Shown: positions 1,077-49,958, numbered from the stretch's first letter. The stretch is 64,000 nt of DNA from Clostridia bacterium (GCA_041687355.1 JAWLCD010000010.1:2371-66370), one strand, 5' to 3'. Made by a program: numbers and translations. Notes: a model not told the origin generated them from the letters alone.

Positions 1077-1334
1077 GGAAAATGAATTAACTGGCGAATA
1101 AGTTTATGGAGAGATCCAAATGCTATCGGGTAGCCCAGGGCATACAGCTGGGACTTGTGCCCAGCCAAAGCCCGGGCCTACAATTATGCTTAAATTTCAG
1201 GAAGAATTTACAGGACGTCAATTCTAGGAATTATTGAGCCAGGACGGCGAATTAATTCCGGTCTGAAATTTAGTATAACAAGCATCTAGTTTATCTTGAT
1301 TTCGTAATCCTTATGAGTGGCTAATTTATATTCC
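1077..1334 (+). repeat. RepB copy B1 (long hairpin arms 1077-1116 / 1286-1334) enclosing RepD (1117-1185) and RepC copy C1 (1186-1285)
   Basis: Arms GGAAAATGAATTAACTGGCGAATAAGTTTATGGAGAGATC and CTAGTTTATCTTGATTTCGTAATCCTTATGAGTGGCTAATTTATATTCC are imperfectly complementary. Confidence 0.8.
1186..1285 (+). repeat. RepC copy C1 (100 nt, predicted three-way junction)
   Basis: Outer stems ATGCTT/AAGCAT and AAATTTCAG/CTGAAATTT enclose the hairpins GAATTTAC..GTCAATTC and GGAATTATT..AATTAATTCC. Confidence 0.75.
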
Positions 1335-14863: not shown

Positions 14864-14886
14864 TCATTTATACCCCTAATTCTTCC

Positions 14887-14911
14887 GTGACAGGGGACGG
14901 TTCTCTGTCAC
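14887..14911. repeat. RepH hairpin H1 (stem GTGACAG/CTGTCAC, loop GGGACGGTTCT)
   Basis: GTGACAGGGGACGGTTCTCTGTCAC. Exact reverse complement of H2. Confidence 0.85.
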
Positions 14912-14926
14912 ATTTCTTTAACGAAC

Positions 14927-14951
14927 GTGACAGAGAACCGTCCCCTGTCAC
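14927..14951. repeat. RepH hairpin H2
   Basis: GTGACAGAGAACCGTCCCCTGTCAC. Confidence 0.85.
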
Positions 14952-14968
14952 GTTTTAAGAAAAGAAAA

Positions 14969-14997
14969 GTGAGTCAAGGAACCGTCCCCTGACTCAC
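14969..14997 (-). terminator. rplS intrinsic terminator formed by RepH hairpin H3
   Basis: GTGAGTCAAGGAACCGTCCCCTGACTCAC. On the minus-strand RNA the hairpin is followed by UUUUCUUUUCUU. It starts 8 nt after the rplS stop. Confidence 0.8.
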
Positions 14998-15004
14998 TTT
15001 TATG

Positions 15005-15349
15005 CTAATATAATACTTCTTTAACCTTTGCAGCTTTTCCAATTCTGTCACGCAGATAGTACAATCTTGCTCTTCTCACACGGCCTCGTCTAGCTACCTG
15101 AACCCCTTCAATTTTAGGCGAATGAATCAGGAATGTTCTTTCAACACCAACTCCGTAAGATAATCTCCTTACAGTGAATGTCTGGTTTACTCCCCCGCCT
15201 CTTTTTTGAATCACTGTACCCTCGAATTGCTGAATCCTTTCCCTGTTGCCTTCCTTAACCTTAACTGACACTTTTACTGTGTCACCGATATTAAACTTCG
15301 GTACCTCATTCTTTAAGTATTCACTTTCAATAGTTTTGATTATGTCCAT
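15005..15349 (-). CDS. rplS: 50S ribosomal protein L19
   Basis: 114 aa with [29 protein letters not shown]. Confidence 0.98.
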
Positions 15350-21047: not shown

Positions 21048-21150
21048 ATTTTTCCCCTCCCTGAAATATAGGCCTGCTCTCCATTGTATTCCCCTTAACT
21101 TCTGCGGGGTGGCTTGCCACCCCGTCCAGAATAAACCATCACTAACCTTC

Positions 21151-24992: not shown

Positions 24993-25018
24993 AAAAAAGT
25001 CCCGTCGGGGACTTTTTT
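24993..25018. terminator. bidirectional-type hairpin between acpP and fabF
   Basis: AAAAAA-GTCCC-GTCG-GGGAC-TTTTTT. The T-run overlaps the acpP stop codon. Confidence 0.7.
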
Positions 25019-32377: not shown

Positions 32378-32402
32378 CAAATTAAATAGCACATCTATAT
32401 CA

Positions 32403-32430
32403 AAAAGCACTCAATATTGAGTGCTTTTTG
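32403..32430 (+). terminator. terminator after the 54-aa Cys-containing ORF
   Basis: AAAAAGCACTCAA-TA-TTGAGTGCTTTTT. Confidence 0.85.
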
Positions 32431-32499
32431 AATATTAAATGGCTACTTATACTATCAATTGAATCACAATTTATTTCCTTGTACTGAATTAATCAAACA

Positions 32500-32524
32500 G
32501 TGACAAGGAACCGTCCCCTGTCAC
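32500..32524 (-). terminator. RepH hairpin H4 overlapping the nfnB stop codon (putative terminator)
   Basis: GTGACAAGGAACCGTCCCCTGTCAC. The U-tract on the minus strand is weak (UGUUUGAUU). Confidence 0.6.
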
Positions 32525-33942
32525 ACTTTCTTTGTCCTGATGTACTCATCAATAGACTTTGCTGCCTTTTTCCCGGCTCCCATGGCCTGGATAACAGTAG
32601 CTGCACCGGTTACAATATCTCCTCCGGCAAACACACCTTCCCTGCTTGTACGGCCTGTAGACTCGTCAGCCACAATGCCTCCATGCCTGGTAAGCTCTAA
32701 CCCAACGGTAGTACCAGCTATCAAAGGATTAGGGGTTGTCCCTATGGACATTATAACCGTTTCTACTTCGATTACGTGCTCAGAGCCCTGCTTTTCCACA
32801 GGCCTTCTTCTTCCGGATGCATCCGGTTCTCCGAGCTCCATTTCAATGCACTCCAGACCTTTCACCCATCCATCATCAGTCCCCAGTATTCTGACCGGGT
32901 TGGTGAGCAGTCTGAACTCAATACCTTCTTCCTTTGCATGATGCACCTCTTCCCGTCTGGCAGGCATCTCATCCTCAGACCGCCTGTATACTATATAGAC
33001 CTTATCAGCCCCCATCCTGACAGCACAGCGGGCGGCATCCATTGCAACATTTCCGCCTCCAACCACTGCAACCCTTCTACCCACCCTGACTGGTGTATCG
33101 CATTCAGGGAACCTGTAAGCTTTCATTAAATTTATTCTGGTTAGAAACTCGTTTGCAGACATCACACCGTTAAGACTTTCACCCGGTATATTCATGAATG
33201 CCGGAAGGCCTGCTCCCGAGCCAATAAAGACTGCATCATACCCCTGGGTGAATAGTTCATCAATACTCACTATTTTTCCAACAACCATGTTGGTTTTTAT
33301 TTCAACTCCCAGTTTTTTAACACTCTCAATATCTTTCTGAACAATATCCTTTGGAAGCCTAAATTCAGGGATTCCATACATCAGCACCCCTCCGGGTACA
33401 TGAAAAGCTTCAAAAACTGTAACCTTGTAACCTGACTTTGCAAGGTCTCCGGCGCATGTAATTCCTGCTGGACCGGAACCTACTACCGCTACTTTTCCCT
33501 TATTCTCATCTCGTTCCAGACTACAGGCTTCCTCTTCTACTCCCTGTGTACTGCCACCGCAGTAGTCGGCAGCAAAACGCTCAAGCCTTCCGATGCCAAC
33601 CGGTTCACCCTTCTTGCCTCTAAGACAGTACTTCTCACACTGACTCTCCTGTGGGCATACCCTGCCGCAAACAGCCGGTAAGCTGTTGGTTTCTATAATC
33701 TTTCTGTACGCTTTGTCAAACTCCTTTTTCTGTATTAGTTTTATGAACTCGGGTATTTGAACATTTACTGGACAACCTTGCACACACGGTGAGTTTTTAC
33801 ACTGCAGACAGCGCATAGCTTCCTCGACAGCCTGCTCCTGAGTGTACCCTAGTGCGACCTCTTCAAAATTCTTATTTCTAACCTCAGGCTCCTGTTCAGG
33901 GATAGGAACCTTTTTCTCCGACATATTAGGCATTTTCGTCAC
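32521..33942 (-). CDS. nfnB: NADH-dependent reduced ferredoxin:NADP+ oxidoreductase subunit B (GltD/SudA-like, 'homotetrameric glutamate synthase')
   Basis: 473 aa with two Cys clusters (CLQCKNSPCVQGCP, CGRVCPQESQCEKYC) and two GxGxxG dinucleotide folds (VVGSGPAG, VVGGGNVA). Confidence 0.88.
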   Translation of the reverse strand: MTKMPNMSEKKVPIPEQEPEVRNKNFEEVALGYTQEQAVEEAMRCLQCKNSPCVQGCPVNVQIPEFIKLIQKKEFDKAYRKIIETNSLPAVCGRVCPQESQCEKYCLRGKKGEPVGIGRLERFAADYCGGSTQGVEEEACSLERDENKGKVAVVGSGPAGITCAGDLAKSGYKVTVFEAFHVPGGVLMYGIPEFRLPKDIVQKDIESVKKLGVEIKTNMVVGKIVSIDELFTQGYDAVFIGSGAGLPAFMNIPGESLNGVMSANEFLTRINLMKAYRFPECDTPVRVGRRVAVVGGGNVAMDAARCAVRMGADKVYIVYRRSEDEMPARREEVHHAKEEGIEFRLLTNPVRILGTDDGWVKGLECIEMELGEPDASGRRRPVEKQGSEHVIEVETVIMSIGTTPNPLIAGTTVGLELTRHGGIVADESTGRTSREGVFAGGDIVTGAATVIQAMGAGKKAAKSIDEYIRTKKV

Positions 33943-36998: not shown

Positions 36999-37108
36999 AA
37001 CCTTTTTGTTCCTCGCTTAAATATTTTTTACCACCTTATTATAACACAAAGAGGGTCGTGCTAGAACTTTCTTAAGCCAAAACATGTTCTGTTTTTAATA
37101 TAAAAAAA

Positions 37109-37135
37109 GTAAGCCAGGGAAGTTCCCTGACTCAC
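37109..37135 (-). terminator. degenerate RepH-like hairpin H6 (terminator of the 50-aa ORF)
   Basis: The minus-strand sequence GTGAGTCAGGGAACTTCCCTGGCTTAC is followed by UUUUUUUAU. It aligns with H3 apart from a loop deletion. Confidence 0.7.
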
Positions 37136-37145
37136 TACAGAAATA

Positions 37146-40998: not shown

Positions 40999-41060
40999 TG
41001 TCAAGGGGACGGGGTTGTTGACAACTTTCTAAAGTTGTTAACAACCCCGTCCCCTTGACA
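40999..41060. repeat. 62-nt near-perfect palindrome carrying the GGGGACGG motif
   Basis: TGTCAAGGGGACGGGGTTGTTGACAACTTT-CT-AAAGTTGTTAACAACCCCGTCCCCTTGACA. The arms are 30 nt with 1 mismatch. Confidence 0.85.
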
Positions 41061-43336: not shown

Positions 43337-44173
43337 ATGGGTATCACGTTAATACTTGGGTTCATCTTTGTTATTATCAACACCTTGGATGTATGGTCAA
43401 TAAGAATATTTGCAGAAAAGCTGGGTGAAGATAAATCAATGCTGTTCCGGGGAATAGGGTCAATACTCTTTTCTGCGTTTATTTTACTTCCTCTAGCAAA
43501 AATTTTATCAATAACGGGGTTCTTAATTTTAGTTGCAGCAGCTTTTTATGGAGTGCTTTGTTCTCATATTTCACTGTTAGGAATGACAAGATGTAATGTG
43601 GTCATATCGGAAATGGTAATCAAGATATCTTTCATACTTAATATTATTATTGATTTGTTAATAGGATACTTAAAGTACAACATTTACATAATAGTTGGCG
43701 GAATAACATTGTTTTTTGCATTGATATTATTAGTCGATATTAAAGGGAAGTATATTGAAAGAAAGACATTGATTTATCCCTTCATAGCTTTTTTTATGTT
43801 TGGCCTTCAGCCATATATTGTCAGGTATGGGTACGAGAAGAGTTTATACAATACGGAAGCTTACGTTTTAGTATATTTAATTGCTTTGATTATTTACTTT
43901 ATTTTAAGAATTGGTGTTAGAAAAGTCAAAATTGAGAGAACAGATATAAAGTATATTGGTGCACTGGGTGGAATATTCTTTGCTGCTATGCTTCTTCAGT
44001 CGTTAGGACATACAATATGCATTCCAAGTATATTTAGAGGGATTACTGTTTTTGCATTAGGCTTGATATATATTGTGGGATTGGTTAATAAAAGAGAGAT
44101 TCTAGCTATGGATAAAGTGATTGGGGTTTTATTAAGTATAATTGGAGTTGGTATTTTGTCGTTATCACAGTAG
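43337..44173 (+). CDS. DMT/EamA-like multi-pass membrane protein (putative)
   Basis: 278 aa with about 10 hydrophobic segments in two similar halves. The gene is markedly AT-rich relative to its neighbours. Confidence 0.55.
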   Translation: MGITLILGFIFVIINTLDVWSIRIFAEKLGEDKSMLFRGIGSILFSAFILLPLAKILSITGFLILVAAAFYGVLCSHISLLGMTRCNVVISEMVIKISFILNIIIDLLIGYLKYNIYIIVGGITLFFALILLVDIKGKYIERKTLIYPFIAFFMFGLQPYIVRYGYEKSLYNTEAYVLVYLIALIIYFILRIGVRKVKIERTDIKYIGALGGIFFAAMLLQSLGHTICIPSIFRGITVFALGLIYIVGLVNKREILAMDKVIGVLLSIIGVGILSLSQ

Positions 44174-44194: not shown

Positions 44195-44240
44195 GACTGC
44201 GACAGATTGAGAACCGTCCCCTGTCGCAGTCCCTCGTTTT
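44195..44240 (+). terminator. RepH hairpin H5 plus T-tract (terminator of the DMT-like gene; possibly bidirectional with dcd)
   Basis: GACTGCGACAG-ATTGAGAACCGTCCC-CTGTCGCAGTC followed by CCTCGTTTTT. Confidence 0.75.
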
Positions 44241-44324: not shown

Positions 44325-44870
44325 TTAGTTCTTCTTATCAGCTTCGCAGTCGTTATATACCTTGCTGCCGATTGCATTTCTCTGTCCCTGATACTTGCCG
44401 TCGTACGGATTCTCTGCTTCAACATCCATTTCTGCGATAACCAGCTGGCAAAGCCTTCTTCCAGCCGTCAGCTTGATTGGAAGTCTGTTTGCATTATAAA
44501 GTTCCAGGGTAATCTCGCCTTCAAAGCCAGGGTCTACCCATCCTGCATTCTGGATAAACAGCCCCATTCTGCCTATTGAGCTTCTGCCTTCAACAAATGC
44601 AGTTAGATTATTTGGGAGCTTTATGTACTCCATGGTTGTAGCAAGCAGGAAGGAATGCGGGGGTATAATTACTTCATCCGCCTCAAATTCAGAATACTTA
44701 ATTGGTGTACTCAGTGTCATACACTCTACCTGGTTTTCCTCCACCTTCAGAAAGTGCCTGCCCAAACGCATGTCAATCGATGCGGGTTGAATTTGTTCCT
44801 CAGTGAGAGGTTCAACAATCAGATCCTTTGCTTCAATGAGTTTTTTAATTGTCTTGTCCGATAAAATCAT
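44325..44870 (-). CDS. dcd: dCTP deaminase
   Basis: [21 protein letters not shown] and [10 protein letters not shown]. Confidence 0.93.
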
Positions 44871-49508: not shown

Positions 49509-49553
49509 AAGGTAGGGGGACGCGACCATTCGCTTCGCTCAAGGAACGTCCCC
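49509..49553 (+). repeat. RepE copy E4 (best stem GGGGACG/CGTCCCC)
   Basis: AAGGTAGGGGGACGCGACCATTCGCTTCGCTCAAGGAACGTCCCC, 5' of B4. Confidence 0.75.
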
Positions 49554-49610
49554 TTCTGATTATAGGGAAGATGAATTTAACTGGCGAATAAGTTTGCGGA
49601 GAAATCTTAG

Positions 49611-49741
49611 ATAAACAGGATTCTTGGGTTCAGGTGGAGTTTTGGCTCCAACTGAATCTTAGAAGCCGTTATCCAGGGACGTAGCGCCGCTTTTCTATAA
49701 TATTAAAGCTGGAGTCTTAGCGGCGGTAGTCATCGGATAAA
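49611..49741 (+). repeat. RepA copy A5 (core only, 131 nt), nested inside RepB copy B4
   Basis: The core sequence is flanked by the RepB left arm and RepC. Confidence 0.9.
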
Positions 49742-49753
49742 TTATGCGAAGTT

Positions 49754-49853
49754 ATGCTCAAATTTCAGGAAGAATTGACAGGACGTCAATTCTAGGAATT
49801 ATTGAGCCACGATGGCGAATTAATTCCGGTCTGAAATTTAGTATAACAAGCAT
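49754..49853 (+). repeat. RepC copy C2
   Basis: Differs from C1 at only a handful of positions. Confidence 0.75.
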
Positions 49854-49958
49854 CTAGTTTATCTTGATTTCGCAGTCCTTATGAGTTGCTAATTCATTTT
49901 CCCTAACTAATGAATTACCCCTTAATCACATTATATGACCTGCGTATCGGGAGGGTTC

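Follow-up and report, generated by a model that had tools for sequence, protein, structure and literature searches.

Repetitive extragenic palindromes (REPs), the doublets that they form (REPINs) and their REP-associated tyrosine transposases (RAYTs) have, to our knowledge, been studied almost wholly in Proteobacteria, and how RAYTs move REPINs is unsettled. These elements, such as the REPs and bacterial interspersed mosaic elements (BIMEs) of Escherichia coli and the REPINs of Pseudomonas fluorescens, are short, many-copy, imperfect extragenic palindromes which form inverted doublets, flank as inverted copies a gene for a Y1/HUH transposase and often lie at gene 3' ends, where they sometimes act as terminators. 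The same features are found for a family of hairpins present in a stretch of 64,000 nucleotides from a Clostridia bacterium (GCA_041687355.1, JAWLCD010000010.1:2371-66370), hereafter called the window, in which five copies (copies 1 to 5, at 14887-14911, 14927-14951, 14969-14997, 32500-32524 and 44195-44231) share one core within outer stems that vary while pairing is kept. These hairpins are very probably a REP-type non-autonomous element, mobilised by a RayT/RAYT-like single-domain Y1 (HUH) transposase with a predicted short C-terminal helix-turn-helix (HTH). They differ from the proteobacterial systems in that the terminal GTAG tag is absent, the conserved part is a 17-nt tip found across phyla, with a stem base that is lineage-specific, the hosts are mainly Bacillota, with Atribacterota in addition, and the transposase is longer (approximately 250 amino acids) and carries the predicted C-terminal HTH.

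The TnpA transposases of the IS200/IS605 insertion sequences (IS) and the E. coli TnpA-REP bind hairpins of single-stranded DNA, which they cut and rejoin. IS200/IS605 elements (IS608, ISDra2) resemble the present system in the Y1 HUH catalytic domain, in the biology of single-stranded DNA hairpins and in the orientation bias relative to replication that is expected of them, a weak form of which was seen here; they differ in that each of their ends has a subterminal hairpin of its own, the two being in direct orientation, and that their transposase is multi-copy, and the family matches obtained here favour RAYT over IS200 TnpA. RAYT-like genes with an added C-terminal HTH and flanking inverted repeats containing GGGGWSAS have been described as TIRYT or 'TIRtron' (Di Nocera et al. 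2013, PMC3733652), and some of the TIRYT repeats are moderately abundant dispersed families that occur in dimers (PMC3733652). TIRYT corresponds to TnpA-Y1 subclass 2.1, which has a C-terminal HTH and for which REP-like sequences were reported as not findable (Quentin et al. 2018, PMC6006769), and probably also to RAYT Group 1, found in Clostridia with modestly repeated flanking 16-mers (Bertels et al. 2017, PMC5581495). As in TIRYT, the inverted repeats flanking the RAYT-like gene here are GGGG-led; the C-terminus of the protein gave matches to HTH_23, HTH_28 and HTH_7 that stayed below threshold. Unlike in TIRYT, each repeat is itself a hairpin, and the core, GGGGACGG, fits GGGGWSAS at seven of eight positions, having G and not A at position 7, and so departs from the published consensus.

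Exactly five occurrences of the 11-mer GGGGACGGTTC were counted in the window, at 14893(+), 14935(-), 14979(-), 32508(-) and 44211(-), whereas dinucleotide-preserving shuffles contained on average 0.43 matches to it with at most one mismatch and reached five in none of 100 cases; a longer exact match, CAGGGGACGGTTCY, is common to all five copies. An earlier, sequence-only reading of this DNA had described the five hairpins as having an invariant core and different yet paired stems, which was confirmed, although two of its copies, 1 and 2, are one inverted pair and hence not independent. A covariance model (R1), derived from 127 copies of other genomes and run unfiltered over the window, matched the five copies with E values of 3e-11 to 5e-4, then a hairpin at 37107-37137 (E 0.03), and nothing beyond. 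A search of the window for the stems with any loop permitted returned the five known copies only, and thus GTGACA...TGTCAC and GTGAGTCA...TGACTCAC do not occur there with other loops. All five copies are extragenic, one overlapping a stop codon by 4 nt; three lie in the spacer between rplS (L19) and ylqF (an rbgA-like GTPase gene), three are singletons, and, as the sequence-only reading had noted, both orientations relative to transcription are represented.

The two strands of the hairpin are not equivalent. On the G-rich strand (the G-form), CAGGGGAC-G-GTTCTCTG is fully paired by means of two G.U (in DNA, G.T) wobbles and leaves a CGG loop of 3 nt, whereas on the C-rich strand (the C-form) the wobble positions become A.C mismatches and an open loop of 11-13 nt results. 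The 'loop' of the sequence-only reading is therefore conserved as a core, but is a loop on the C-rich strand only. The window copies folded with energies between -15 and -23 kcal/mol as G-forms and between -10 and -20 kcal/mol as C-forms; the mean RNA energies of copies elsewhere were -13.8 and -9.0 kcal/mol, respectively.

When genomes, one for each species, were scanned for the 17-mer CAGGGGACGGTTCTCTG, at least 120 matches were listed, and among the matches listed were Lachnospiraceae, Oscillospiraceae, Acutalibacteraceae, Anaerovoracaceae, Christensenellales, Syntrophomonadaceae, Peptococcaceae and Thermacetogeniaceae, as well as two Bacillaceae isolates (Sutcliffiella halmapala and Salipaludibacillus neizhouensis) and four metagenome-assembled genomes (MAGs) of Atribacterota. 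The element is a hairpin of 25-37 nt, whose tip, CA-GGGGACGGTTC-YY-TG, is constant across genomes of Lachnospiraceae, Oscillospiraceae, Syntrophomonadaceae, the Bacillaceae isolates and the four Atribacterota MAGs, and whose outer stem is genome-specific (TAAGACA, AACACA, GGAGACA, CAATCA, GGAAGCA and ACCACACA among others). In 127 copies picked solely for their distinct left arms and held in a fixed register, the outer stems showed 269 double-sided changes, compared with 118 ± 13.5 in shuffles, none of 500 of which scored as high; the covariation score of 0.35 fell to 0.09-0.15 when the partners were slid by 1-3 columns. A wider sample comprised 240 loci fetched by the motif (120 genome loci and 120 metagenome loci, 1.5 Mb in all), the flanks of which held 433 exact cores and 97 one-mismatch variants (approximately 24 expected by chance).

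When the open reading frames (ORFs) of the 120 genome loci obtained with the 17-mer were clustered all against all, one family proved to adjoin copies, in five loci. The encoded protein, of approximately 250 amino acids, has an HUH motif (GNHxHLL) and a tyrosine motif (Y-x-x-x-NP) and belongs to the Pfam family Y1_Tnp (E 1e-13 to 1e-16), which was matched by 29 of 29 family proteins. A profile of the 29 members searched against solved structures had a sole match, 4ER8, the E. coli TnpA-REP, a further likeness to the proteobacterial system, whereas a single-sequence search of the PDB with the family protein returned nothing. In the last approximately 25 residues only sub-threshold matches to HTH_23 (11 of 29 proteins), HTH_38, HTH_7 and HTH_28 were obtained, and no Bac_DnaA_C. 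The family comprises at least 6442 clusters, several of which have been named 'REP element-mobilizing transposase RayT' by the Joint Genome Institute (JGI).

The metagenome loci, obtained by a scan with the stem variant of the window, GTGACAGGGGACGGTTC (120 loci, 595 kb), contained ten further homologues, in eight of which the CCGTCCCC portion of the core follows the stop codon at a distance of 7-46 nt; at the homologue in L296 the core is short of one C, and in L258 only the left arm is present, at the edge of the stretch read. Upstream, three of the ten have an exact core and two more a degenerate copy. Altogether 15 transposase genes were found in the 240 loci, with a core within approximately 65 nt in nearly all. 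In a control from the protein side, all four homologues examined (55-58 % identical) had a G-form core approximately 55-65 nt upstream, and in all four a C-form core followed at most 15 nt past the stop. The association with a RAYT- or IS200-like gene which the sequence-only reading had put forward as a check is therefore present in related loci, with the motif flanking Y1 transposase genes, and no such gene was found in the window.

The repeats flank the gene and the enzyme superfamily is that of IS200/IS605, so that an active IS of this type with miniature derivatives, resembling palindrome-associated or miniature inverted-repeat transposable elements (PATE/MITE-like), could be considered, in which the gene would be selfish and multi-copy and the hairpins its ends. 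A second, truncated Y1_Tnp fragment lies 5 kb from the full gene in L366, and RAYT Group 1, which occurs in Clostridia, shows more IS-like traits than the other groups (PMC5581495). This explanation is nevertheless improbable: the best family match is to RAYT and not to IS200 TnpA, the chromosomal context of P0088 is the same in three samples, hairpin cores outnumber transposase genes by 433 to approximately 15 in 1.5 Mb, and the ends of IS200/IS605 elements do not consist of a single palindrome present in inverted copies.

The right arm of the upstream repeat continues into TTGACA, 17 nt and TAnnnT (L361:90-160, L362:9930-10000, L363:930-997, L366:150-212), and the repeat thus overlaps the probable promoter of the transposase gene. 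This overlap suggests that the RayT gene may be autoregulated through the predicted C-terminal HTH. TTGAC was also found within 16 nt on the right-arm side of 63 of 439 copies, compared with 10 on the other side, so that copies could donate a -35 box.

When pairs of cores at most 120 nt apart were counted within the 1.5 Mb of loci, all 55 inverted pairs consisted of a G-form followed by a C-form and none of the reverse, and 38 pairs were tandem. The modal spacing of the inverted pairs was approximately 40 nt, compared with 42 nt for the pair in the window, and the polarity of the doublets is that of the repeats which flank the transposase gene. The copies are also depleted from ORFs, 33 % of them lying in stop-to-stop ORFs of at least 120 amino acids compared with 82 % of random positions.

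A trace of mobility in the window is copy 4, at the end of a gene encoding an NfnB/GltD-like protein (Fer4_20/Pyr_redox_2). Copy 4 (R1 E 5.2e-09) lies in a 53-nt block at 32488-32540 (- strand), which comprises, in order, the duplicated target of 14 nt (32527-32540), GT, the REP and 12 bases, TGTTTGATTAAT. The whole block is a clean alignment gap in the corresponding loci L370, from the close relative GCA_041685035.1 (93 % amino acid identity), and L371, from a more distant one (81 %), and the two versions of the 14-nt target are imperfect duplicates (TCAGGACAAAGAAA and TCAGTACAAGGAAA). On the evidence of these alignments copy 4 is a recent insertion. It has rewritten the end of the gene, whose C-terminus reads ...RTKKV in the window and ...RTRN in the closest relative: the new stop, TGA (32521-32523), is inside the GTGACA stem, in agreement with the overlap with the nfnB stop described earlier, and the ancestral TAA stop persists downstream, in the relic of the duplicated target at 32471-32487. 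Further downstream, an ancestral two-way terminator, AAAAAGCACTCAatatTGAGTGCTTTTT (32402-32429), is conserved in L370; a simple scan missed it because its A/T runs are themselves paired and leave no free T-tail. Copy 4 itself passes the simple terminator scan, yet it sits upstream of the ancestral terminator and is not required for termination. Together with the RAYT-like gene flanked by the motif in related loci, the depletion from ORFs and the polar doublets, this insertion upholds the proposal of the sequence-only reading that the hairpins have a DNA-level, mobile, REP-like origin.

The spacer between rplS and ylqF contains copies 1 to 3. Copy 1 (14887-14911, + strand) reads GTGACAG-GGGACGGTTCT-CTGTCAC with the G-form on the + strand, and was matched by R1 with 37.3 bits (E 2.8e-10); its minimum free energy (MFE) as RNA is -15.1 kcal/mol in the G-form and -10.1 kcal/mol in the C-form. 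Copy 2 (14927-14951), with the G-form on the - strand, gave 40.2 bits (E 2.7e-11). They are the left and right halves, respectively, of a REPIN-like doublet at 14886-14952, inverted so that the G-form precedes the C-form, in which arms of 29 nt, 97 % complementary, are separated by a 9-nt spacer and the cores are 42 nt apart. Copy 3 (14957-15001, - strand) consists of the core hairpin at 14969-14997, an extension of A/U pairs and then UUUUCUUUUCUU; its 17-bp helix (-22.7 kcal/mol, z -6.6) was reported by the terminator scan, and the spacer between rplS and ylqF has no further terminator. Copy 3 is probably the intrinsic terminator of rplS (15005-15349, - strand).

The close relative GCA_041685035.1 was compared with the window at two places, with 84-88 % nucleotide identity in long aligned blocks and 93-95 % identity in the proteins compared. 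In its rplS-ylqF spacer (L368) copy 3 is identical to that of the window, copy 1 has two changes in the core, and copy 2 has been rearranged, directly after GGGACGG, into a perfect palindrome, GGGACGGaagaaCCGTCCC, between flanks that are 88 % identical. At L368:4330-4400, GAGGGACGGaagaaCCGTCCCgCCGTCCC stands in place of copy 2, a quasi-palindrome having been made a perfect palindrome at the tip, as would be expected from template switching. In a more distant relative (L369) the spacer is only 59 nt long and has a terminator of the ordinary kind; the REP is absent from the site, and no core was found in 18 kb.

Several copies had been regarded earlier as co-opted terminators, and a related explanation would be that the hairpins are an immobile element acting in RNA, selected because it terminates transcription, stabilises 3' ends or binds a protein on mRNA. 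Copies do lie directly after stop codons, and the G-form, the more stable as RNA, faces the upstream gene in 116 cases and the C-form in 58, although 13 of the 116 arise from the TGA contained in the GTGACA stem. Copy 3 is a textbook terminator, and like the hairpin at 37107-37137 it has the GC-rich stem and subsequent U-tract of intrinsic terminators in general. Most copies, in contrast, have no U-tract, a T-rich tail being present in 22-26 of 270 well-paired copies (approximately 8-10 %), and one third of the gene-proximal copies are in the weaker orientation. The conservation far exceeds what termination needs, and neither the fixed polarity of the doublets nor the flanking of the transposase gene nor the presence of the truncated tandem units described below agrees with a role in RNA. 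Copy 4 was inserted upstream of a pre-existing terminator and copy 5 does not qualify as a terminator, leaving copy 3 as the one instance in which the earlier claim of co-option holds cleanly. The orientation bias is explained equally well by replication: G-forms are on the G-rich strand in 134 cases and on the other in 92, a weak bias which is inseparable from that relative to transcription. In the window the G-rich strand carries four of the five G-forms; + strand GC skew is strongly negative throughout (1-64000, -0.11 to -0.21) and the majority of long ORFs are on the - strand, so that the whole window belongs to one replichore, with the - strand as leading-strand sequence. This weak strand bias of the G-forms fits an action on the lagging-strand template. 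A purely RNA-level element is thus very unlikely.

That unrelated GC-rich terminator hairpins share the word by chance or through compositional bias can practically be dismissed, since, although GGGGACGG terminators do occur in viral contigs and the window hairpins at 21105 and 24999 are of such a kind, the observed count was reached in none of 100 shuffles and the 17-mer recurs in hairpin context in hundreds of loci. DNA uptake sequences, polar motifs of the Chi/KOPS/SRS type, integron attC sites, CRISPR repeats, group II intron domain V, mimicry of the tRNA T-arm and an artefact from Nextera adapters were set aside on general grounds, as none of them fits a hairpin of constant tip and variable stem which flanks a Y1 transposase gene and is present in isolate genomes.

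Mobilisation as a REP-type element by a RAYT-like transposase thus accounts best for what was directly observed: the anatomy of the hairpins, their link to the gene in other genomes, the single polarity of the doublets, the bias towards positions outside genes and the insertion that relatives lack. Several results weigh against it. The best NCBIfam match of the transposase, NF047646 (REP-associated tyrosine transposase), reached 68-79 bits, below the cut-off of 80. No RAYT was detected by tblastn across the 64-kb window (best E 0.19), and for the genome of the window the link to such a gene consequently rests on other genomes. The base of the stem carries neither GTAG, the hallmark of classical REPs, nor CGTC; what is conserved is instead the tip, CAGGGGACGGTTCYYTG. 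Part of the taxonomic breadth comes from a few MAG contigs of Prevotella, Treponemataceae and Desulfovibrio, which are possibly mis-binned. Finally, isolated copies are without a consistent flanking duplication (the mean longest shared word was 5.41, compared with 5.0 in controls, which is no general signal), so that a duplication like the 14 nt at copy 4 does not mark insertions in general. The exceptions were copy 4 and a metagenome contig, L349, in which an isolated REP lies between perfect direct repeats of 34 nt, CATGTGATAATAAGAAAACCAACTGTGGTGAAAA.

By analogy with the characterised enzymes, the substrate of the transposase would be single-stranded DNA, probably that of the replication fork. 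The enzyme would recognise the folded tip on one strand and would discriminate between the strands because G.T wobbles keep the helix of the G strand continuous, where the C strand has A.C mismatches. Cutting and rejoining would then move either a doublet, corresponding to the two ends of the gene without the transposase, or a single unit. The inserted copies would mostly be neutral passengers at gene ends, but a copy inserted with its G-form leading into a U-rich stretch could become an intrinsic terminator, as may have happened with copy 3 at rplS, and an insertion can rewrite the last codons and the stop of a gene, as copy 4 has done.

Partial units were also common. Tandem units truncated at the 3' side, consisting of the left arm and part of the core, were observed directly upstream of full copies, with a common 5' boundary and variable ends in the tip (L161:1130-1200, L133:1400-1470, L149:1690-1760, L132 on the - strand, L176, L142 and L163). 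Left-half partials with at least three core bases numbered 82 compared with approximately 10 expected, and right-half partials 38 compared with approximately 12. The truncated tandem units and the rearrangement after GGGACGG in L368 place breakpoints at the hairpin tip, which could reflect either the action of the enzyme there or slippage or template switching provoked by the hairpin during replication. In IS608 and with E. coli TnpA-REP, breakage takes place beside the foot of the hairpin.

A broader proposal, which is tentative and rather less probable than its opposite, is that the hairpins form a REP superfamily across phyla (Bacillota, Atribacterota and perhaps others), in which the tip is constant and the base of the stem drifts and covaries, that they are the missing repeat partner of the HTH-bearing subclass 2.1/TIRYT, and that breakage and rejoining occur at the hairpin tip and not beside the foot. 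The last part is suggested by the core-truncated tandem units, the L368 rearrangement after GGGACGG and the left-half relics.

Copy 5 (44195-44231, - strand) has the exact core, an 11-bp outer stem, GACTGCGACAG, and 4 extra nt, CAAT, between the core and the right arm (R1 E 5e-4; MFE -22.2 kcal/mol in the G-form and -19.7 kcal/mol in the C-form). It lies between a convergent ORF at 43337-44173 (+ strand) and dcd (44325-44870, - strand), and it does not qualify as a terminator on either strand, with no terminator-like tail. The ORF at 43337-44173, earlier labelled 'DMT-like', had no Pfam match at E<=1e-4.

Three further structures in the window are at most marginal members. The terminator hairpin at 37107-37137 (- strand), with a U7 tail, has the 11-mer GTGAGTCAGGG in common with copy 3, was picked up by the terminator scan and is conserved in L370. 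Its tip is short by 2 nt, in line with the loop deletion reported for a degenerate copy at 37109-37135, but with R1 its membership is marginal; it may be a decayed REP. The 62-nt palindrome at 40999-41060 (-54.4 kcal/mol) includes, at 41000-41059, an inverted pair of a variant unit, GTCAAGGGGACGGGGTTGTTGACAAC, with an extra GG in the core, the same order of G-form and C-form as in the doublets and the same core spacing of 42 nt; the unit also occurs twice in locus L175. Within the repeat designated RepE (49517-49553), a degenerate core at 49537-49555 (- strand), AAGGGGAC-GTTCCTTGAGC, has a 1-nt deletion and no matching outer stem, and is possibly a relic. The 7-mer GGGGACG, which occurs 10 times in the window compared with 2.6 expected, is indeed present in both RepE and the palindrome, as had been pointed out, but R1 detected neither, so that the palindrome is at best a related but distinct subfamily. 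The hairpins at 21105-21124 and 24999-25012, which had been linked to the motif, contain neither GGGGACG nor CGTCCCC and are ordinary GC hairpins.

At gathering thresholds Rfam gave no match at any of the window copies, the sole matches in the window being to TwoAYGGAY (RF01731, gathering score 43) at 1178-1305 (+ strand, 45.5 bits) and 49731-49878 (+ strand, 56.8 bits), the latter starting approximately 180 nt downstream of RepE. A scan of viral contigs for a 14-mer gave mostly chance matches, and some of the GGGGACGG-bearing hairpins in these contigs are plain terminators, in which the word itself forms the stem. Four copies with stems of the ACACA type were present in an 88.7-kb contig classed as viral (IMGVR_UViG_3300028805_000089, loci L033 and L040), which is perhaps a prophage, or else a piece of chromosome wrongly classed.

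A full-text literature search with the motif and its sub-words returned only unrelated eukaryotic or primer matches and none that was bacterial, and the motif is absent from PMC3733652, PMC6006769 and PMC5581495 and from the supplements of key REP papers. The element is of the known REP type, and this family with its shared 17-base tip has apparently not been described before; the long cross-phylum tip, the lineage-specific covarying stems and the strict polarity of the doublets are new relative to the searchable literature.

For annotation, the family means that such hairpins should not by default be taken for terminators or regulatory RNAs, and that they can alter gene ends, as in the NfnB/GltD-like gene; the repeats also explain many contig breaks in metagenome assemblies. 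Fresh insertion polymorphisms such as that of copy 4 allow the rules for the junctions to be derived. The combination of a long invariant block with lineage-specific stems, in Firmicutes of gut, rumen and sediment, is a natural experiment on what the enzyme reads, and its interest would be higher if the tip proved to be the cleavage site, or the repeats the missing partner of the HTH-bearing RAYT subclass.

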